Positions 38,305-50,628 of a stretch of 64,000 nucleotides of DNA are shown one piece after another. The stretch is from positions 1 to 64,000 of the IMG/VR virus record IMGVR_UViG_3300044691_000355; one strand, 5' to 3'. Position numbers and translations under genes: made by a program. Under the pieces are notes generated by a model. That model saw nothing but the letters and a program-made list of their open reading frames with translations, had not been told where the DNA came from and did not search any database. Source of the DNA: a virus. Positions within the stretch are counted from its first letter, which is position 1. Each line of letters starts with the position of its first letter.

Positions 38305-39018
38305 TTAAACGCCGCCGCTGCGCGAGGCCCAGAATTTGCGATTGGTTTCATTCAAGGATGCGGTGGTGACCGCCTTGCCGAAATCCTTGACGGTGAGCTT
38401 GACGTTTGCGCCCGCCTTGTTATTGCGCTCGCGCATCAGCTCGGCGGCTCCAGTGAAGACGCCTGCAACGTTGTCGAGCGTCACTGCATCGATCTTCTCG
38501 CCAAGCAAGAAGGGCTCGATCACCGCTTTGCCGTCGTCGGTCGCATAGGCTGTCTGCACGGCTTTGAGCATCAGGGCTGGCAGCGCATCCTTGGCCTGCG
38601 CACTGTCGCCCGTCGGCACCGCGATACCGGGGCTCAAGATTTCCGCACGCGCGAAAATGTGCTTGGACACTTGCGCCGCATCGGAGGTGCCGAGCACGCC
38701 GACATTGCGGGTACGCGCGGCTTCAAGCGCGGCTGCGGAATCGGTGGCGGCCTTCGCGGCAACGGCGTCCTCGGCTGCCTTTTTCTTCATCGCACAGTCG
38801 GCCGCTTCCTGTTCTTCCTCGGCATCCTTCACCGCCTGGCGCTGCTCATCGACCCACGCGAGCGCGTCCTGGATGCGCTTATCCATGGCTGAGTCTGTCG
38901 TCCCGCCATCGTTGCCGCCCGTGTCATCATCGGCGAGTTCTTTATCGAGTGTTTCCGCGTCGCGCGCATTGAACGCCTGCATGACACGGATGAATTTATC
39001 GGCAAATTTCGATTTCAT
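38305..39018 (-). CDS. Possible nested scaffold protein from an internal start
   Basis: AGGAGA RBS about 10 nt before the in-frame ATG of MKSKFADKF. Confidence 0.5.
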   Translation of the reverse strand: MKSKFADKFIRVMQAFNARDAETLDKELADDDTGGNDGGTTDSAMDKRIQDALAWVDEQRQAVKDAEEEQEAADCAMKKKAAEDAVAAKAATDSAAALEAARTRNVGVLGTSDAAQVSKHIFARAEILSPGIAVPTGDSAQAKDALPALMLKAVQTAYATDDGKAVIEPFLLGEKIDAVTLDNVAGVFTGAAELMRERNNKAGANVKLTVKDFGKAVTTASLNETNRKFWASRSGGV

Positions 39019-39942
39019 GATTGAACGGTCTCCTAACGGTTTATAAATGCGCGATTTCGCCGCGCTGCTGGGTCTGCTCGGTTTCGACTTGCGTTGCAGC
39101 GCTCGATAGGCCGCCATGTGCTCTTTGCTCTTCGCCGTGTGTACGGCGAAGGACTTCTGATTGCCTGCCGCATGCGCGGCGGTTGCGGCTTCGAGGTGCA
39201 GGCCAAGGGCATGCCAATGGGCTTCCTCATCGCCACTCGTTTGCGCCGCTGCACTCGCCGCATGCGCGGCGGCTGAGCGCAGGCTGGTGCCACCGCCGCC
39301 ACCACTCCAGCGCCCGGTCGCATCGCGCTTCTCGGTGGGGTTGAACTGATCCCACACGGAATCCTTGATGGCGCAGCGCGAGCCTGCGCGCCCGCGCCCG
39401 TCGAGTAGCGCCACGTGATTGCCGATGATGTTGTACTGCGTCGCGCGCCCCACGTCGGTCTGCTCATATTCCGCGTCATAGCCGCAGGAAAGTTCCGGGT
39501 GCTTGCGATTCACGAAGGCAATCGCCTCACCGTCGGTGATGATCAGATCGCCCACGAGCGTGTCATCTTCGATGCCGCTGCCACGGCGCACGTTGTGCAC
39601 GGTGCCCACGGAATGTTTCTTCCAACTGCCGGGGGTCACGAATTCGTTCGGATGCTCCAAGGTGACCGGCTTGCCCTCGAAGCTCGACATCGTCTTGTCG
39701 CTGAAAACCTCATCCGCGAGGCGCGTGACGATGATCTCGCCCGCGCCATTGGCATCCAAGGGCAGCTCGGATTTGTGGTAGCGCTGCTCGCCCGTGCGCG
39801 CAATCGCCACCCCCTCGCACACCATGTACCCTTCAGGCGTAAGCCTGCGGCTCTTGCCCACCGCGCCTGGCGCATAGAAAGCGGTTTTGTCGATGACCCC
39901 GACACGGTCGAACACATTGAAGCGCTCGCGCACTTTCTTCAT
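38305..39942 (-). CDS. Head maturation protease/scaffold (DUF2213) with a tagged insertion
   Basis: TPEGY, IARTG, EVF...SFEGKPVT.EHP, ELSCGY, GNHVAL..GRAG.RC.I.D. Confidence 0.9.
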   Translation of the reverse strand: MKKVRERFNVFDRVGVIDKTAFYAPGAVGKSRRLTPEGYMVCEGVAIARTGEQRYHKSELPLDANGAGEIIVTRLADEVFSDKTMSSFEGKPVTLEHPNEFVTPGSWKKHSVGTVHNVRRGSGIEDDTLVGDLIITDGEAIAFVNRKHPELSCGYDAEYEQTDVGRATQYNIIGNHVALLDGRGRAGSRCAIKDSVWDQFNPTEKRDATGRWSGGGGGTSLRSAAAHAASAAAQTSGDEEAHWHALGLHLEAATAAHAAGNQKSFAVHTAKSKEHMAAYRALQRKSKPSRPSSAAKSRIYKPLGDRSIMKSKFADKFIRVMQAFNARDAETLDKELADDDTGGNDGGTTDSAMDKRIQDALAWVDEQRQAVKDAEEEQEAADCAMKKKAAEDAVAAKAATDSAAALEAARTRNVGVLGTSDAAQVSKHIFARAEILSPGIAVPTGDSAQAKDALPALMLKAVQTAYATDDGKAVIEPFLLGEKIDAVTLDNVAGVFTGAAELMRERNNKAGANVKLTVKDFGKAVTTASLNETNRKFWASRSGGV

Positions 39943-40268
39943 GTGTTCGCAATCGAGGGATAGGTGCGCACTGGCAGGATGCCCGACCAGTCCAAGATTT
40001 TTTCTGGGTTGCTCGTGGCGCACGACACGCCGATGGCGTAGTCGTTGTAATCCACGCCAGCCGATACCGGCAGCAGCACTTGTGTGCTGGTGGAGCCGAG
40101 CACGGCGGTGCCCAAGATCAAGCCAGCCCCGTTGGTGTCGGTGCCCCAGATATGATTGAGAACGACCGTCGGCGCGCCGGTCAGGGTTTCCCCAACCAGC
40201 AGCCCCAATGCAAAGTTGAACACCAGTTCAACCGCTTCCAGGGGTGCTTTTTCACTGAATCGCTGCAT
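39939..40268 (-). CDS. Fibre adaptor protein
   Basis: K.P.E...L.FNF...L..GETL pattern; follows the repeat fibre gene. Confidence 0.65.
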   Translation of the reverse strand: MQRFSEKAPLEAVELVFNFALGLLVGETLTGAPTVVLNHIWGTDTNGAGLILGTAVLGSTSTQVLLPVSAGVDYNDYAIGVSCATSNPEKILDWSGILPVRTYPSIANT

Positions 40269-40282
40269 GTCTTAATTCCTTT

Positions 40283-41860
40283 TCAAGGTGATCGCGTCCA
40301 CGTGACTTCACGCGCGGGCGCGCTCATCGCGGCTTCGGCGGGGGGCACGTAGGAGACGGTGAAATTTCGCGCACCGAGCTGTGCCTGCGCCGCCGCCTCA
40401 TACGAAGCGGTGAAATTTCGCGCAGGGATATCGATGACGAAGGGGCCTGGCCCTTGGCTGGTCGCGGTGGTCGATAAGATCGAATGCAGCGTGTCGGGCG
40501 CTTCATGCGCGCCCAAGGCCGCAGCCACGCTCAAGAGACTCTGCGCAATCAGCGCATCCGCCCCTTCCACCACAATCGCATTGGCGGCTTCGAGCAACTG
40601 CGCGAAACTCGTAATCGTATCCGGCGCTTCCGTGCGGGTAAGACTCGCGCCCACGGTGAGCGAGAGCGCGGCGGCGAGCGCATCAGGGCCTTCCGTTTTT
40701 GTCAGCAGCGCCGTGATCGGCACCGCACCTGAAACGGCGATGAGCGTATCTGCGCCTTCGAGAATCGCAGCGTTGATCACTTCGGGCAGCGTTGCCGCAG
40801 CACTGAGTGTGTCGCCGCCTTCGGTCTTCGCGAGGCTGATCGCTTCAGGCAGCGTGGCGGCGGCGCTGATCGTATCGGGCGCTTCGGTGATCGATGCATT
40901 GATCGGCGTGCCGCTCAGACTCGCCGCTGCGCTGATCGTATCGGCGGCCTCGGTCAAGGCCGCATTCAAACTTTCAGGCAGCGTGGCCGCCGCCGCAATC
41001 GAATCAGCACCTTCGGTCAGCGCGCAAGCAATCGCTTCGGGCAGCGTTGCGGCTGCGCTCGACGTGTCGGCCCCTTCGGTCACGCTTAAAGACGCAACCG
41101 ACACGGGCGCGCCTGCCGTTGCGCTTAAGGTATCTGCGCCCTCCGTCACCCCGGCGTTGAGAACCTCGGGCAACGTGACAGCGGATGCGAGCGTGTCCGC
41201 ACCTTCCGTATCGGTGAGCGCCATCGCTTCCGGCAGCGTGGCACTCGCTGCAATCGTGTCCGCACCTTCCGTTCTGCTCAGCGCTACCGCAACCGGCAGC
41301 GTGGCACTTGATGCAACAGTGTCAGCGCCCTCGGTGTCGGTGAGCGTGACGGCAGCGGGCAGCATCACCGCCGCACTCAAGGTGTCGCCGCCCTCGACTA
41401 TCGATGCGCTTACCACCTCGGGCAGCGTCGCGGTCGAGCTGCTGGTGTCTGCGCCTTCCGTCTTTGACAGGCTCACCGCAACCGGCAAGGTCGCGGCGGC
41501 ACTGATTGTGTCGGCACCCTCCGTGACGCCTGCGCTTGCGCCCGCTGGCGCTATTGCGGCTGCGGCAATCGTGTCCGCACCTTCGACAAGAGCGGCGGCA
41601 GCACCGGCTGGCGCGCTCGCGGCCGAACTGATCGAATCAGCACCTTCGGTGATGCTCGCGCTGATCGCTTCGGGGAGCGTCGCCCCCGCGCTTAAGGCAT
41701 CTGCGCCTTCAGTCTTCGCCAAGTTAACCGCAACCGGCAGCGTCGCAGCGGCGCTTGAAGTGTCCGCGCCTTCGGTGGCGGCAAGGGCCGCATTCGTGCC
41801 GCCCGATACGGCAGGCAAGTCCCAGTCGAACCACTTTTGAATGAGAAGATCGAGGCTCAC
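40283..41860 (-). CDS. Repeat fibre protein with about 21 copies of a 21-aa repeat
   Basis: TEGADT.SAAATLP.A.... repeated about 21 times. Confidence 0.8.
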   Translation of the reverse strand: MSLDLLIQKWFDWDLPAVSGGTNAALAATEGADTSSAAATLPVAVNLAKTEGADALSAGATLPEAISASITEGADSISSAASAPAGAAAALVEGADTIAAAAIAPAGASAGVTEGADTISAAATLPVAVSLSKTEGADTSSSTATLPEVVSASIVEGGDTLSAAVMLPAAVTLTDTEGADTVASSATLPVAVALSRTEGADTIAASATLPEAMALTDTEGADTLASAVTLPEVLNAGVTEGADTLSATAGAPVSVASLSVTEGADTSSAAATLPEAIACALTEGADSIAAAATLPESLNAALTEAADTISAAASLSGTPINASITEAPDTISAAATLPEAISLAKTEGGDTLSAAATLPEVINAAILEGADTLIAVSGAVPITALLTKTEGPDALAAALSLTVGASLTRTEAPDTITSFAQLLEAANAIVVEGADALIAQSLLSVAAALGAHEAPDTLHSILSTTATSQGPGPFVIDIPARNFTASYEAAAQAQLGARNFTVSYVPPAEAAMSAPAREVTWTRSP

Positions 41861-44245: not shown

Positions 44246-45079
44246 TTAAACGATGATTTCTGCCCAGCAGCGGCATTCCCAAATGCACCCAGGATGAAAG
44301 CGCATCAGTCGGCCGCTCTCTTCGATCTCGGGCGGGTTGGCCCACTCGCATACGCGGCCGTCCATCGCGCGATGATTCGGGCGAGTCACATGATCTTTGG
44401 TCGCGCGCCAGCGGTAGGTCGGAAGCCCGGCGATGCTCGCGCGTGCTTGGGTCAAATTCGATGCGGTGCGCGACACCTCGGTGCGTGCGATCAGCCGCGC
44501 GTGCGCTGCGCTCACCTCGCCTGAGCGCTCGATCTCGCGCACGATCCTTCCTAATCGCTCGCCCTCGATCAGGCCGGTCAAGGTGAGGCGTTGCACACGC
44601 TGCGCAGCTTCGATGGGCAAGGAGGCAATCAATTCGGTTTGCTCGGCCATGAGTTTGGCCATCACTGCGCCGACTTGCGTGTCACGGATTTCTTGCGCGA
44701 CGCCAGCGGACATGCTCTTGGCCAGCGCGCGCCAGGTTTCGATATCGCGCGCGTTGACTTCCTCGATCATCCTGGCCGATGCTTTTTTGGCCCATGGCCG
44801 AAGCACCTGGCTGTAGGCGTGCAGCACCGAGACCAGCTCTTCGTTACCCGCCCTTTGGGCGGCGGGGAACGCATTGATCAGATGCCCGATGTGTTCACCC
44901 ACCTTGCCGAGCGAACGCTCGAATTCTTCCGTCGCGCGGCCGATCCGTGGCTTGCCTCGCGCTCGCTTCGCGCGCGCATCCATGGCGCGGTGACGCTGCG
45001 CCCGCGAGCCAAGGGAGTACGTTAGGTGGCCGCACGTGAGCAGCGGCACGAATTTCGGTTTCGGTTTCGCCGCGATCAC
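44246..45079 (-). CDS. MuF/SPP1 gp7 minor head protein
   Basis: ARLIARTE, Y.WR..D..TR..H..MDG, HPG.IW.CRC; GTG at 45079 with GTGA overlap. Confidence 0.9.
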   Translation of the reverse strand: MIAAKPKPKFVPLLTCGHLTYSLGSRAQRHRAMDARAKRARGKPRIGRATEEFERSLGKVGEHIGHLINAFPAAQRAGNEELVSVLHAYSQVLRPWAKKASARMIEEVNARDIETWRALAKSMSAGVAQEIRDTQVGAVMAKLMAEQTELIASLPIEAAQRVQRLTLTGLIEGERLGRIVREIERSGEVSAAHARLIARTEVSRTASNLTQARASIAGLPTYRWRATKDHVTRPNHRAMDGRVCEWANPPEIEESGRLMRFHPGCIWECRCWAEIIV

Positions 45080-45258
45080 GGCGTTGTCGGCGGCGTCACC
45101 ACGGCATTGATCAGTGCATCGGCGTACCCGACGCACACTCGCGCAAGGTCTGCGGGATCATTGCGTGCGCCGCGCACGATGGCAGCGGTCAGGAAGACCC
45201 CCGCGAGCGCGAGGCGCAAGACTTGATCGCGATCTTCAAAATCGATGGGCTCACTCAT
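45076..45258 (-). CDS. Small hypothetical protein
   Basis: ATGA/GTGA overlaps on both sides. Confidence 0.6.
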   Translation of the reverse strand: MSEPIDFEDRDQVLRLALAGVFLTAAIVRGARNDPADLARVCVGYADALINAVVTPPTTP

Positions 45259-45389
45259 TCCGTCTCATCCTCGTCTTCGTCGATGGGCTCATCATCAAAC
45301 GGATACTCCATGCCCTCGGGCAGATGCGCTTCGACCGGCTGATAGTCGTTCAAGCGCTTGATGAAATCCTCGGAGACTTTCTCGGTCAT
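45255..45389 (-). CDS. 44-aa highly acidic protein (candidate inhibitor of the upstream ADP-ribosyltransferase)
   Basis: MTEKVSEDFIKRLNDYQPVEAHLPEGMEYPFDDEPIDEDEDETE; ATGA overlaps at both ends. Confidence 0.65.
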   Translation of the reverse strand: MTEKVSEDFIKRLNDYQPVEAHLPEGMEYPFDDEPIDEDEDETE

Positions 45390-47764
45390 AACAGCGCTCC
45401 TTGAGCGGGGGCCTTCACGCGCGGCTTGCGTAGCTTCGGCGGTTGCACCGATGAACTGACCGCCGTGGCATGCACCACGATTCGCGCGAGTTCGCCCTCG
45501 CCTTTCGTGACCTTGGTGATTTTGAAGACCGTGCCCCGTGGCAGCAGCGCTTCGGCCTCGCCGTCGGCGAATGGCACGTCAGTGCCGTTATGCTGATTGG
45601 CCAATTTGCCGAAGGTGGGGATGGATAGGAACTTGAATCCCTTCGGGATGGTGATATGCATCAGCCCGTCTTTACTGAACACGTGCGCCACGCTCTTGGC
45701 GAACGAGGTGGAGCAATACGCGTGATCCATCATCGTGTCACCGACGCCGATGGATTCAACAAGGATGCGGGGAAGGCCGCGCGCGACCAGCAGCTTGCGC
45801 GGCGAGCCCTTCACGGCCTGCATGGCTGTATCGATGCCACGGATGTACGTCTGCATGTAGCTCGACACTGCGTCGAGATTGCCTTGGCTACGACGCAAAT
45901 CATCGTTGATCGAAGAACCTCCGGTGTACTTGACGACCCCGTCGATGATCTCGGGCGTAGGATCTGGCGGCGGCATCTTGAATGCGCGCTCGGCGAGGCG
46001 TGAGGCCTCTGTGCCGCTGCTGCCGCGCATTTTTATCAACATTTCAGGCAACGTCTTCGGATCAACGGGCTCAGGCGGCGCGTTGTTCGCTGCGGATGAC
46101 GCCGCGTAAGCCTGCGCTTCGGCCGTCGAGGCCTTCGTGTATTCCGCTTGCCACGTCGCTTTCTCAGCCCCAGTCATGCTGGTGGAGGCGTACACGGTCG
46201 ATGCCATGTTGGTGAAGGCATCGAGCTTTTCGACGGCGGCGAAGTGTGCGGCCTTGAGTTTGTCCAGCTCCGTTTGCGGCTTCGCCGACATCTTTTGCGC
46301 GAGCTTCTGCTTCTCCAGCGCCGCATTCAGCGCAGCCTCTGCTGCGTTTTCGTTGAACTGCGCTTCACTCACCAGCGCTTTCAGATGCGCGAGCTGCTCG
46401 GGGATGGCAGTCCCTGACGTGAACGCTTGAACGAGCCGCATGACAGCCGCTTCGTTCTCGGCGCGCGCCTCCAGATGCGCCGCCTGCAACTCCTGCAACG
46501 GCGTGAGAGGCGCGGGCGCATTCATCTGATTGACGTAGGTTTGCATCACTGAGCCGAAATGCGCGAGCGTCGCGGGCCCATCGGCCTGCGCGGCGTTCAT
46601 GATCTGAAGGAATTTCTTCGGTGAAGATTTGCCGTACAGGTACAGCTCGTGCACGCCGTATTGCAGATTGCCGACCCACAGCTTGGTCGCCTCGGTCACC
46701 TCGAAATTTTCCTGCACGTGCTTGAGCGAGCCCGCTTCGGCGGAATACGTGAAATCGAGTTTCTGCGCCGCCTGGGTGTCGAGTTGCTCCAACTCCAACA
46801 CCTTATCGGTCTCGGCATCTGCCTTGTACGCGGCTTGAAGCGCCTCTTGAATACGCTTCTTCTCCAGCACCGCTGCCTGATGCAGCGCCGCTTTCTCTTT
46901 CGCATACGCCATCGCGGTGCCTGTCACCGTCGGCGGGAAGAGCTGATTGAAACTGCCTTTGGTCCACTTGCCGGTCGCGTCGCGCTTCTGATCGGGGTCG
47001 AAATGATTCTTCTCATCATCGCGAGTCACACCGATCAATGCGGCGCGGCGCGCAAAGAACGTGCGCGCCAGCGTCGCGGAATTCTTCAAGCCGGAGGCGA
47101 CGAATGCGCCCTCAATGGCATTGCTATCAAGGCCGCGCACGCGCTCAAGCGCCGTATCAAAGGCCTTCGGGTCCAAGCGGCGCAACTGATTGAACACGGC
47201 ACCGGAGGGTAAATGCTCGCGCATCAGGCTCGACTTCTCGCTCACATCGGCGTCGTAGTCCTTATGCTGCCCCTGCGCGCGAAATTCAAACGCGCCGCCC
47301 AGATCGAGCTGCACCAAGTGACCTTGCGCGTCTTGCGCGATGTTCGAGTAATCAATTCCCAGCACGTCCCAGTTTTTGGTGAGCACGGCCGCGTAATACA
47401 TGGTCGCCAAGTCCACGCGCCGCTCAGCGTCGAGGAGCTGCACCGCGCCGGGCCACTTCACGGGCTTCGCCTCAATCCACGGGGAGACCAAGGCCTCCTT
47501 GCCGTGCACGGATTCGACATGCGGCATCGTGGTGCGCACACCCAACTGTCCGACCAGCGCGCTGGCGAGCGCCTCGCTGCGGCCCTGATCGGGGTTTGCG
47601 TAGAATTTGATGTAGTGCTTCTGACCCGCACTCGTGAACACGCCGCCGGGGTTTGAACCTAACTGCGCGCCGCTCTTCGTCCAGCGGCCTTGCGTGTCGC
47701 GCTTCTCAGCAGGATCAAAGCCGTCGTATGCCCTCGCGACGCGCGCATCCCACTGAGCGCTCAC
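45386..47764 (-). CDS. Head-module polyprotein: tag, HipA/PI3K-like kinase, tag, helical region, ADP-ribosyltransferase (VIP2/Alt-like)
   Basis: GSNPGG..YIK..E..NWD....N...LD.GG kinase motifs; Y.G.SSINDDLR, RG, STS, ExE-ALLPRG ART motifs. Confidence 0.85.
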   Translation of the reverse strand: MSAQWDARVARAYDGFDPAEKRDTQGRWTKSGAQLGSNPGGVFTSAGQKHYIKFYANPDQGRSEALASALVGQLGVRTTMPHVESVHGKEALVSPWIEAKPVKWPGAVQLLDAERRVDLATMYYAAVLTKNWDVLGIDYSNIAQDAQGHLVQLDLGGAFEFRAQGQHKDYDADVSEKSSLMREHLPSGAVFNQLRRLDPKAFDTALERVRGLDSNAIEGAFVASGLKNSATLARTFFARRAALIGVTRDDEKNHFDPDQKRDATGKWTKGSFNQLFPPTVTGTAMAYAKEKAALHQAAVLEKKRIQEALQAAYKADAETDKVLELEQLDTQAAQKLDFTYSAEAGSLKHVQENFEVTEATKLWVGNLQYGVHELYLYGKSSPKKFLQIMNAAQADGPATLAHFGSVMQTYVNQMNAPAPLTPLQELQAAHLEARAENEAAVMRLVQAFTSGTAIPEQLAHLKALVSEAQFNENAAEAALNAALEKQKLAQKMSAKPQTELDKLKAAHFAAVEKLDAFTNMASTVYASTSMTGAEKATWQAEYTKASTAEAQAYAASSAANNAPPEPVDPKTLPEMLIKMRGSSGTEASRLAERAFKMPPPDPTPEIIDGVVKYTGGSSINDDLRRSQGNLDAVSSYMQTYIRGIDTAMQAVKGSPRKLLVARGLPRILVESIGVGDTMMDHAYCSTSFAKSVAHVFSKDGLMHITIPKGFKFLSIPTFGKLANQHNGTDVPFADGEAEALLPRGTVFKITKVTKGEGELARIVVHATAVSSSVQPPKLRKPRVKAPAQGALL

Positions 47765-50628
47765 GGCCCAAACATTTCCGCATACACGGAATCGAAATCC
47801 TCATCGCCGTCATCATCGTCATCGCCGGGGTCAACGCTTTGCCAATCTGGCGTCTCGCCCACATAGCCATGCGTCTCTAAGAAATCGGTCATCGCTTGCT
47901 CACTCGTCACGGCTGCATCGGCGGCAAACAGGCGGCCGATCCAGTCCTTGACCTTGGATTTTTTCACTGGGGCTGTTGCACTCCAGGCTTTCCACACCAT
48001 CGGATCGATGTAGGACTTCAAGGCCTGCGCGGGCTTGTTGCCGAGCTTATCGCTGACCTTTTCAGCGATGGCGGCCACAGAGGCCTTGTGCTCTTTCGCA
48101 TCCATCGGCACCGGCATTTTCTTGACCTGCGCGCGCGCCATGTCGGTGGCGACCCATGTGCGCATGTCCTTCAAATCGAATTCTGAAGCCCCAATGCCGT
48201 GGAAGTAATCGCGCACGTGGGTTTCGCTCACCTGGAAAATCTGCTTATTCTCGCCCGTCGCACGCTGGCGTAGGAAGGTCGCGACCTTCGCATCCTTGAC
48301 GATGTGATGCTGCGTAACGCCGCTCTTGCCGGGGAAATCGAACGTGGTCGAATCGCCTGAGACCTTGACGTGCTGGCCTTCCAACTGCGTCGCCCCATGG
48401 GCTTTGACATCCGCGCCCGTGTCCTTTTCGGAGCCGGGACGAAAGCCAGTCTGCGAGACCAAGTACACGACTGCGGCGGCATCCTGTACCGCGCGCGGCA
48501 GCTTCGGATCGTTCATGTCGGCGGCGGCCTTGGCAACCACGCGATCCCGTACCTTATTGAAGGCGACGAGGCGCGAGAATTTCTCCACGTCCTGCTCGCC
48601 GCGATGGCCCGGCAGCTCGCGTGACTGTGAGCGGCCCTTGACATCGCGCCCCGTCACTTGCTTGCCTTCGGTCGGATCGGGATTCAAGCGAATGTCGGTC
48701 CACGCGGGCGGTATTTTCAGCGCCTTCAATCGCGCGTGCTCTTCGGGCGTGCCGCCATGCCACTTCTCATTTGCGCCGTACACGGTGTGCGCTGGCACCA
48801 TCTCGCCCTTGACGAGCTGCGCGGGGATGAGCGTGCCGCCGGAGCGCGTGAACACCTTGCTCGATGTGCTCCAGCGATTCGCAATTGGATTCTTGGACAC
48901 GTAGGACTTTTCAGGCACCGCTGCCTTGCCCTGATTGCCTATCGTCCATTTGCCTTCGGGGTCGCGCTTCTCCTGCGGATTGAACCCGTGGTGCGGCTGA
49001 CCGCCTGACGTGACGTGCTTCAACTTATCGAAGTTCGGGATATTCTCGAAGCGGTCAAAGAAATCCGCGTCGCGGCCTTTCTTGGTCTTCGGCGGCGGCT
49101 TCTTCGCGACCTTGGAGGCCTTGCTCTTCGCGCCCGGCGCTTTGGCAGCGCCTGACTCTGAGCCACGGCCGGGACGCGCGGGCGTCTTGCCCTTTGCGCC
49201 GGGTTTCGCAGCGCCCGGCGGTGCACCGGGGGCGGGCTTCGGCAGCACCAGGCCCAGCGCTTCGGGCGTGGGATCGGGCAGCGACTCGGCGTTTTTGATG
49301 TCCTCATCCGCGATATTCGAGAACGCGCCGGTAATGAGCGACATCGCCTTGAGTTCCTTCAGGCCCGTCGCTTTGTTGATGAGCTGCGCGGAGAAGGCCT
49401 CGGTAACGGCCGCCACCGTGGTGTTGGTGACCTGGGATTTCTCCGTGTCGGACAACTGCCACAGGGATTTGAACTCTAAGGTGAATTCTTTCGGCGGCTC
49501 GGTGCCGAATTTGCTGATGTACGCCAGGCGATACACCGTCTCGATGCCATCACCCAGCCACGTGACTTGCTGCTGCTTCACTGAATCGTGATAGCCGCGA
49601 ATGTCGGCATCCCCGGTCGAGAACCCGGCAGGCGATTGACCGAAGAGGCGCACCAGCGGTATTTCAACGGCCCCCGCCAACTGCTCGCCGAACTGCGACA
49701 GGATCACATCGAGACCGGCAAATGCGTACTGGTGCGTCTCAAAAGTGTCGCGCGTATCCAAGAGGGTGAGGCCCTCATTGGTTTGCATCGCGCGAATCAT
49801 GTTGATGTTGGCGAGCAAGCCTTTCATCGCGGCCGATGTGCCGCCGATGATTTCGCGCAGGCCCTCCACCGACAGCGTGCGCAAATGCGCCTTGTAGACC
49901 ATCTGCGAGATGCCAGCGGTGGCCGAGTCATACGCGATCAGCCGATCCCACATCCGCTCGATCACTGACTGGCCCCACAGGTTCTCACCGATGCGCTGCC
50001 AGTACGGCAGCTCCACGCCCTCGATGCGGATCACGCGCGAGTAGTGGATTTTCATGCGCGGCATGCCGCCCGTGTCGGTGATCGTGTCGTAGAAGCGCGG
50101 TTTGCCGAAGTACGGCCCCATGTCATCGACCAAGTCGGTCAAGGAGGGCTGCAACACCCACCGATCCAGCGGCATCAAACCTTTGAATTGCCCCTGGCGA
50201 ATGCGATCCAATTTCAATGGCGTCGCGGGGTTTTGCCCATCGATCATCATGAAGGCGACAGCGCCGCCATAGAGGCGCGCCCACTTAATCGTGTCGCGCA
50301 GTTGCTTCCACAATTGCAGGCGCGCGATTTCCTTATTGAAGTCCGCGATCTTTGACGGCTTATCGCTCGTGGTGATTTCCATGCCCTCGCGGGTCATGTC
50401 CTGCGCGTAGACATCGACCACGCGACCGGCGATCCAAGAGCCCCGGTACACCATCTCCATCTGCATGCGGTTGCGCGAGATGGGATTAAACCCATACGCG
50501 CCGCCATCGCCCTGATTGCCCGTGCCGCGCCCCACGTGCGCAAGAAAATTCTGAAAAGTATCGTGAGTTTGGGCGGCCTCCGCGTCTGCGAACTTCTTGA
50601 CCAGTCGCGGACTGCGCCGATTGCTCAT
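47761..50628 (-). CDS. Portal protein (DUF1073-type) fused to DNA topoisomerase IB and an acidic tail
   Basis: YRGSWIA..VVD..A.DMTR, W.RLYGG, IHYSR, IP..RLFGQSPAG (portal); IPPAW, GRD.KGR.Q, GFRPG, F.GKSG, KD.RT..A, LGN....KSYIDP (TopIB). Confidence 0.9.
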   Translation of the reverse strand: MSNRRSPRLVKKFADAEAAQTHDTFQNFLAHVGRGTGNQGDGGAYGFNPISRNRMQMEMVYRGSWIAGRVVDVYAQDMTREGMEITTSDKPSKIADFNKEIARLQLWKQLRDTIKWARLYGGAVAFMMIDGQNPATPLKLDRIRQGQFKGLMPLDRWVLQPSLTDLVDDMGPYFGKPRFYDTITDTGGMPRMKIHYSRVIRIEGVELPYWQRIGENLWGQSVIERMWDRLIAYDSATAGISQMVYKAHLRTLSVEGLREIIGGTSAAMKGLLANINMIRAMQTNEGLTLLDTRDTFETHQYAFAGLDVILSQFGEQLAGAVEIPLVRLFGQSPAGFSTGDADIRGYHDSVKQQQVTWLGDGIETVYRLAYISKFGTEPPKEFTLEFKSLWQLSDTEKSQVTNTTVAAVTEAFSAQLINKATGLKELKAMSLITGAFSNIADEDIKNAESLPDPTPEALGLVLPKPAPGAPPGAAKPGAKGKTPARPGRGSESGAAKAPGAKSKASKVAKKPPPKTKKGRDADFFDRFENIPNFDKLKHVTSGGQPHHGFNPQEKRDPEGKWTIGNQGKAAVPEKSYVSKNPIANRWSTSSKVFTRSGGTLIPAQLVKGEMVPAHTVYGANEKWHGGTPEEHARLKALKIPPAWTDIRLNPDPTEGKQVTGRDVKGRSQSRELPGHRGEQDVEKFSRLVAFNKVRDRVVAKAAADMNDPKLPRAVQDAAAVVYLVSQTGFRPGSEKDTGADVKAHGATQLEGQHVKVSGDSTTFDFPGKSGVTQHHIVKDAKVATFLRQRATGENKQIFQVSETHVRDYFHGIGASEFDLKDMRTWVATDMARAQVKKMPVPMDAKEHKASVAAIAEKVSDKLGNKPAQALKSYIDPMVWKAWSATAPVKKSKVKDWIGRLFAADAAVTSEQAMTDFLETHGYVGETPDWQSVDPGDDDDDGDEDFDSVYAEMFGP

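Follow-up and report, generated by a model that had tools for sequence, protein, structure and literature searches.

Phages are known to take over their host within seconds of infection by means of head-packaged ADP-ribosyltransferases (ARTs), T4 Alt among them, and both Alt and the ARTs fused to MuF or portal proteins are held to be packaged and injected (PMC5512222, PMC9503650). Here we describe a gene of this setting from a stretch of 64,000 nucleotides (positions 1 to 64,000 of IMG/VR virus record IMGVR_UViG_3300044691_000355, hereafter the window). The source is an uncultured phage of approximately 133 kb and the gene lies in its head-assembly module, where an uninterrupted open reading frame (ORF) on the minus strand (45386–47764) encodes the 792-amino-acid (aa) protein P0001. 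An atypical kinase-fold domain at the N-terminus of P0001 is followed by an ART domain at the C-terminus, and we read the whole as a two-enzyme effector of the head module that is packaged, injected and host-modifying, a reading to which we assign a probability of roughly 0.55. The ART half is of a known kind, the head-packaged ART effectors; for the kinase half, which is part of a huge family, Pfam has no model.

T4 Alt, the MuF- or portal-fused ARTs and P0001 are all R-S-E ARTs encoded together with head genes, and for P0001, as for the Alt family, packing into the capsid and injection to modify the host at the start of infection would be expected. P0001 differs from the Alt-type proteins in that it is fused to neither MuF nor portal and in its N-terminal kinase fold, which goes unmentioned in the available text on them (PMC5512222, PMC9503650). 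A second comparison is offered by Bxa, the MuF-ART of a Bacteroides stercoris prophage, an arginine-modifying enzyme with toxicity in bacteria that small ORFs next to its gene neutralise, the immunity proteins being Bsi and BAH (Alexei et al., 2024, PMC11699363). Bxa and P0001 have in common an ART in the head module and small ORFs adjoining the ART gene; unlike P0001, Bxa contains a MuF part and lacks a kinase domain, and the word “kinase” is absent from the Bxa paper. The MuF polymorphic toxins as a group (Jamet, 2017; Bxa, Apk2) carry an N-terminal MuF domain in the same polypeptide, whereas P0001 has no MuF match.

Kinase folds in delivered proteins also have precedents. CtkA of Helicobacter pylori is encoded by an integrative and conjugative element and depends on a type IV secretion system (PMC5536186); P0001 resembles it in belonging to a mobile element and in its probable delivery to a second cell. 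Polyvalent phage proteins include a clade, described in PMC5512222 as Ser/Thr/Tyr-kinase-like, that is without the whole C-terminal subdomain, has a conserved His and Asp separated by an insert, and occurs mainly in (pro)phages of Verrucomicrobia-Chlamydia and Bacteroidetes. Both this clade and the P0001 kinase are kinase folds in large phage proteins predicted to be injected, but the P0001 domain keeps a helical C-lobe, has NWD in place of H..D, and is nearest to CtkA, PI4KII and HipA. The two families appear to be different, a distinction drawn from the text description of the clade rather than from an alignment.

By profile matches, alignment and predicted structure, the C-terminal domain of P0001 is an R-S-E ART of the C3/VIP2 type, and we consider this call secure. 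Pfam PF03496 (ADPrib_exo_Tox) matches residues 610–767 with an E of 1.6e-11 (44.3 bits vs. a cut-off of 23.4), and PHROG 3895 (“ADP-ribosyltransferase exoenzyme toxin”) matches the domain with an E of 3.4e-9. The catalytic set comprises R662 (ARG), S685-T-S687 and E736-A-E738, plus Y613, in agreement with the triad that a preliminary description of this DNA had named. A word-index search with the ART region alone returned nothing but P0001 itself, a blank due to the word filter, for phmmer and jackhmmer did pick up ART relatives among the collected proteins. Domains were cut out before aligning (31 kinase and 27 ART domains); among the 27 ART domains (the query and 26 relatives) no exception occurs at R662 or E736, and conservation at S685, T686 and E738 is 90% or more. 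The profile built from this alignment matches the solved structures of Lmo0066 (3e-31), Vip2 (1e-28) and C3 (2e-18), as well as CdtA, iota Ia, C3larvin and SpvB, and when the domain is aligned with C3 alone, R662 pairs with the Arg of FRG and E736-x-E738 with QxE. The AlphaFold2 (AF2) model of the domain (pLDDT 91.2) compares with C3bot at a Z of 19.1 (rmsd 2.1, 168 aa) and with VIP2 at a Z of 17.8. The initial assignment had been VIP2/Alt-like; to the Alt-like PHROG 802 the domain has a weak match of only 36 residues (734–769, E 1.4e-5), which PHROG 3895 outscores.

P0001 shares the ART fold and the Arg, STS and Glu motifs with C3, VIP2 and the iota and CDT components. Those toxins are secreted and have eukaryotic Rho or actin as their targets, whereas P0001 is a phage protein. 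Its ExE is that of VIP2 and iota, while C3 has QxE. In the studied ARTs of this family the ExE motif accompanies arginine as the acceptor, and its presence in P0001 suggests that arginine would be modified here as well.

The kinase assignment rests on fold comparison, since sequence searches against the Protein Data Bank (PDB) were blank or at chance level. With full-length P0001, phmmer found no match among PDB sequences; the kinase profile returned a surface-layer beta-propeller (E 0.0035) and coiled coils, which we dismissed as chance. NCBIfam likewise has no match to P0001. The AF2 model of the domain (pLDDT 88.7, pTM 0.83), in contrast to these sequence searches, has H. pylori CtkA as its top Foldseek match (E 2e-6), and alignment with VIA-align gives a Z of 17.5 for CtkA (rmsd 3.4, 213 aa), 14.8 for CotH, 13.5 for HipA, 13.2 for PI4KII-alpha and 13.1 for HipT. 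An exhaustive comparison with 48,161 chains keeps the same order and adds MavQ (13.3), actin-fragmin kinase (12.3) and Fam20 (12.0). The matches to two-lobed kinase folds cover 205–233 aligned residues (PI4KII-alpha at a Z of 13.2–14.0), with identity to CtkA and HipA of only 13–14%. Structure prediction of each domain had been proposed beforehand as a check on the preliminary description, and both folds were matched.

The motifs of the domain agree with the fold. They are GSNPGG (36–41), YIK (51–53), E64, NWD (131–133), N141 and DLGG (154–157), and every one of the kinase motifs named at the outset (GSNPGG, YIK, the helix-C Glu, NWD..N and DLGG) is present and conserved in the 31 aligned domains: G36, S37, G40, G41, K53, D133, D154 and G156 are invariant, and N38, E64, N131, W132, N141 and G157 are at least 90% conserved. 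A further segment after DxGG, F161-R-A-Q-G165..K168, is invariant in the same alignment. In the model K53 ends the strand 48–53, E64 lies within the next helix (58–73), and a helical C-lobe (helices 186–253) follows DxGG; the catalytic roles (Gly-loop, Lys-Glu pair, Asp/Asn, DxG) are assigned by position and pattern rather than by residue-level superposition. Compared with CtkA and HipA, P0001 has a catalytic loop of the form N-W-D-x7-N followed by the invariant FRAQG..K, and it is tied to an ART, a link not recorded for either of those proteins. At the level of fold and motifs, then, the N-terminal domain is an atypical kinase fold, HipA/PI3-4K-like as initially proposed, and judged by its conserved residues it is a catalytically intact-looking member of a very large, unnamed atypical-kinase family. 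BFVD also has a match in an archaeal virus, Haloarcula hispanica tailed virus 1, to the 1,100-aa protein R4T6E8 (E 1.6e-6, TM 0.54), and the predicted fold may extend to archaeal tailed viruses.

At E ≤ 0.001 the kinase-domain profile matches 5,812 clusters (50% identity), and at E ≤ 1e-30 it still matches 3,175, in proteins of 229 to 7,004 aa with up to five copies of the domain. Behind the pairing counts stand redundant metagenomic contigs and the top 150 of the 5,812 clusters by score, a biased sample, so they are to be taken as rough fractions. A VIP2-type ART occurs in 79 of 196 kinase-bearing proteins and is downstream of a kinase in 75 of these 79, usually at a distance of 60–190 aa (median gap 182). 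Three of ten proteins that are without a VIP2-type ART have the order MuF-kinase-DRAT, and one metagenomic protein of 3,416 aa (P0063) consists of five successive kinase-ART pairs with approximately 80–90 aa from each kinase to its ART. Precomputed Pfam matches for 58 near-length relatives give the ART PF03496 in 23, the DRAT family PF07357 in 6, MuF in 12, portal in 6, minor capsid protein 2 in 5 and NUDIX in 3.

A similar picture is obtained from whole loci. At least 521 stretches in IMG/VR encode a kinase relative, and 80 loci, near-duplicates included, were kept. A VIP2-type ART is in the same ORF as the kinase in 21 of the 80 and a DRAT-type ART in 15, always after the kinase, and in a further 20 a stand-alone kinase of about 240–470 aa has one to four ART genes in its locus, often adjacent and in some cases on the opposite strand; in total an ART is fused to the kinase or present in its locus in 56 of 80. 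In two such loci (L009 and L030), three or four small ART genes, paralogous and arranged in series, flank the stand-alone kinase gene. The kinase domain occurs in nine phages in GenBank, and in the two that were inspected a PF03496 ART follows it at the C-terminus (proteins of 1,213 and 2,146 aa); the 2,146-aa protein, from Yersinia phage fHe-Yen8-01, bears the GenBank note “phage particle associated protein”. BFVD and the ESM Atlas give structural neighbors from phages, mostly labeled “hypothetical”, whose domains include MuF, portal, ART, DRAT or NUDIX, and a few of them are automatically labeled PI3K/PI4K. The kinase domain is also joined to NUDIX, HD and PTP-like phosphatase domains (P0011, P0015, P0020 and Atlas clusters), some of these proteins being bacterial (Pseudomonadota).

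Since the order is fixed, the pair is repeated within one protein, two ART families take part and unfused neighbors occur, we conclude from these sequence comparisons that kinase followed by ART is a conserved functional unit across phages, fused or neighboring, with either of the two ART families. No published work on the pair came up in a literature search that did not extend to most subscription journals or to supplementary files.

The features of P0001 and of the ORFs that follow it are as follows.

45386–47764, minus strand: whole ORF P0001, 792 aa, with a GTG start and a GTGA overlap with the portal stop.
47678–47719, minus strand: tag copy 1, FDPAEKRDTQGRWT, residues 16–29 (motif scan).
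47015–47692, minus strand: atypical kinase-fold domain, residues ~25–250 (alignment, AF2 model, structure comparison).
46961–47002, minus strand: tag copy 2, FDPDQKRDATGKWT, residues 255–268, directly after the kinase domain (motif scan).
45965–46954, minus strand: orphan Ala-rich middle region, residues 271–600 (composition, searches).
45440–45955, minus strand: ART domain, residues ~604–775 (Pfam, PHROGs, alignment, model).
45389–45439, minus strand: basic Pro-rich C-terminal tail, residues 776–792 (sequence; low model confidence).
45255–45389, minus strand: very acidic 44-aa ORF, candidate ART inhibitor or immunity partner (ATGA overlap with the stop of the ART gene).
45076–45258, minus strand: 60-aa ORF, chained by an ATGA overlap, likewise a candidate ART inhibitor or immunity protein.

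The virus record is 132,772 bases long with an estimated completeness of 96%, and holds one copy each of the kinase domain and the ART domain; its large terminase has a best identity of 47% to any named relative. The placement of the gene between portal and MuF, as first reported, is borne out by Pfam. Upstream, the GTG start of P0001 overlaps the TGA stop of a gene for a Phage_portal_3 protein (E 3.2e-103) in the shared letters GTGA, with the large terminase (TerL) gene just upstream of the portal gene. Downstream, the two small ORFs are followed by a separate Phage_Mu_F gene (44246–45136, E 5.4e-17). The portal protein itself (47761–50628, minus strand, 955 aa) has a type IB topoisomerase (TopIB) domain after its PF06381 (Phage_portal_3) domain (PF01028, E 1.3e-20; bacterial TopIB N-domain, E 5e-8), and the junction of the two is a Lys/Pro/Ala-rich linker with one tag copy. 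Between the MuF and protease genes (40283–41860, minus strand) lies a 525-aa protein that is almost entirely repetitive, with some 20 degenerate copies of a unit like TEGADT(L/I)SAAATLPE.

The preliminary description reported a tag copy in each half of P0001, and both copies, FDPAEKRDTQGRWT and FDPDQKRDATGKWT, are real. A six-frame scan of the whole window for the motif RD..G[RK][WF] gives four matches, all of the form F[DN]PxxKRDxxG[RK]W[TS], located before the kinase, after the kinase, between portal and TopIB, and after a DUF2213 domain. The end of copy 1 reaches the first kinase strand (strand 29–32 in the model). The fourth copy (39304–39345, minus strand) is directly after the DUF2213 domain inside the ORF 38305–40023, which encodes a 572-aa protease/scaffold-like protein whose DUF2213 part is PHROG “head maturation protease”. 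In the wider family a looser form, often ..HPRDxxGKF, has 39 matches in 35 of 200 proteins vs. 2.3 in shuffles, often at the N-terminus or immediately before the kinase. A literature search for the motif found nothing relevant. We propose that the 14-aa tag may be a capsid-loading signal or a protease processing site.

The middle region (271–600) is 20% Ala and 53% A+E+K+Q+L, a composition from which it is judged to be helical. It matches only itself in a search of 5.8 billion proteins, and no internal repeats were found when these were looked for. Two weak hits in this region were set aside: Pfam DUF3417 (E 0.0027) is under its cut-off, and the PADLOC “Cyclase” hit (E 0.008) is weak and irrelevant. 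The closest relatives of P0001 are portal-tag-kinase-ART fusions with approximately 60 aa from kinase to ART and without the second tag, and it is for this reason that tag 2 and the 330-aa stretch look inserted. Judged from these sequences, the simplest history is that the kinase-ART pair became a separate gene beside portal and that its linker gained tag 2 together with 330 orphan residues. We reject the recent joining of two independent tagged cargo modules, which the tag copies had initially suggested, as the pair is conserved in hundreds of relatives and the closest of them are single-tagged.

The small ORFs after the ART gene resemble in position those next to Bxa. The ATG of the 44-aa ORF overlaps the stop of the ART gene as ATGA, and in L003 and L004, the two closest relatives, the ART is likewise followed by a similar acidic mini-ORF (42 aa and 35 aa, respectively). 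The 44-aa ORF resembles the small immunity ORFs (Bsi) that neutralise Bxa (PMC11699363), and it may restrain the ART in the producing cell. No ARH-type hydrolase gene is present between the ART gene and MuF, and no search of the window was aimed at one.

In the mechanism that we propose, P0001 would be made late together with the portal protein, to which it is translationally coupled, and would be loaded into the prohead with the 14-aa tag acting as loading signal or processing site. The DUF2213 protease possibly cuts P0001 at the tags, and the 44-aa acidic ORF may curb the ART in the cell that makes it. On infection P0001 would, by the precedent of the packaged ARTs, be ejected with the DNA into the new host, where the ART would use NAD+ to ADP-ribosylate host proteins, probably on arginines. 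The kinase, with ATP, would act on these same targets or elsewhere in the same pathway. That the pairing is conserved speaks for cooperation between the two activities and against independent warheads. Injection followed by modification of host defence proteins or RNA polymerase is, judged from context and analogy, plausible, and the packaging, processing, injection and targets of P0001 in this scheme are inferred.

Several points weigh against this scheme. P0001, unlike most of its relatives, is fused to neither MuF nor portal, which leaves the tag, with its putative function, as the basis for entry into the capsid. The fold neighbors of the kinase domain mix protein kinases (CtkA, HipA, CotH, Fam20) with lipid kinases (PI4KII, MavQ), and for that reason the phosphorylation of host proteins is not established. 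On the query kinase domain no Pfam kinase model reaches threshold, HipA_C (PF07804) included; weak HipA_C matches occur in 6 of the 31 relatives (best E 0.041) and in 3 of 10 stand-alone relatives (E 0.0075–0.011, 15.8–16.4 bits vs. a cut-off of 30.5, covering the N-lobe only). The bias of the sample behind the pairing counts counts on this side as well, as do the 24 of 80 IMG/VR loci in which no ART was seen, some of them being short contigs. Finally, the fHe-Yen8-01 protein annotated as particle associated is only about 29% identical to P0001 in the kinase domain, and a literature search on that phage found no paper behind the annotation.

Among other explanations, the kinase, instead of phosphorylating host proteins independently, may act on the substrate or product of the ART (for example the ADP-ribose mark, or a small molecule derived from NAD or ADP-ribose) and yield a composite modification that host hydrolases cannot reverse. 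The strict kinase-then-ART order, with five repeats in one protein, and the pairing with two ART families and also as separate neighboring genes would be expected of such coupled chemistry; the invariant basic F161-R-A-Q-G..K168 suggests one fixed, possibly phosphate-bearing, substrate, the other partners of the kinase are NUDIX, HD and PTP-like phosphoesterases, and lipid kinases are among the fold neighbors. On the other hand, no such reaction was found in the literature searched, the closest fold, CtkA, is a Ser/Thr protein kinase (PMC5536186), and ARTs are described in PMC5512222 as the commonest enzyme in polyvalent phage proteins, which may inflate their co-occurrence with the kinase. 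We regard this explanation as unlikely.

It is also unlikely, in our estimate, that P0001 is a polymorphic toxin or fitness factor of the MuF type rather than a take-over factor, that is, an ART toxin from lysed or particle-producing cells (cf. Bxa, Apk2) with the small ORFs as its immunity genes. The ART is broadly of the Bxa type and lies in the head-morphogenesis region, and the acidic ORF is ATGA-coupled to the ART stop with similar ORFs in L003 and L004, all of which would fit such a toxin. P0001, however, is without a MuF domain, MuF being a separate gene, and the record is a 132,772-base virus genome that is 96% complete, not a prophage in a bacterial contig. This explanation and the packaged-effector reading are not mutually exclusive.

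A more specific form of joint action, which we put forward as a speculation of low probability, is that ART and kinase form a two-step machine in which ADP-ribose is placed and the mark or its site is then phosphorylated, with the tag as a cut for the head protease that separates the enzymes in the capsid. If this were true, the NUDIX or HD domains in some relatives would trim the mark further, and the composite mark would resist host ADP-ribosyl hydrolases and be a new kind of post-translational modification in thousands of phages.

The kinase fold might instead serve as a regulator or adaptor of the ART, switching it by modification or recruiting its targets. SidJ, a kinase-fold protein that modifies SdeA, is a model for this behavior, and the obligate adjacency of kinase and ART, usually 60–190 aa apart, is in keeping with it. 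The stand-alone kinase genes with an ART on the opposite strand speak against a regulator, as does the 330-aa spacer with a possible processing site between the domains of P0001. The conserved ATP-binding and catalytic residues are neutral in this respect, as they fit any active enzyme, and so is a predicted complex of the kinase and ART domains, whose score of 0.00 (mark 0.32, without controls) does not bear on contact between them. On balance we find a regulatory role quite improbable.

That P0001 modifies phage or host proteins during head assembly in the producing cell, and is not delivered, is very improbable in our view: its co-transcription and translational coupling with assembly genes and the tag common to it and the protease/scaffold protein would fit, but its relatives are fused to portal or MuF, with one annotated as particle associated, and the precedents, Alt and the polyvalent proteins, are delivered (PMC5512222, PMC9503650).

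The packaged, injected two-enzyme effector thus remains our reading of P0001. What is new relative to the known head-packaged ARTs is a very large unnamed kinase-like family tied to such ARTs, in a fixed order and with two ART families, and fixed linkage of this kind usually marks enzymes on one pathway. The question of what kinase and ART do together is directly testable, because cultured relatives exist in Pseudomonas putida phages, for example Jeremy and Dolphis, and the substrates of the pair could reveal a common, unstudied mechanism of host take-over or anti-defence, possibly with new ADP-ribose chemistry.

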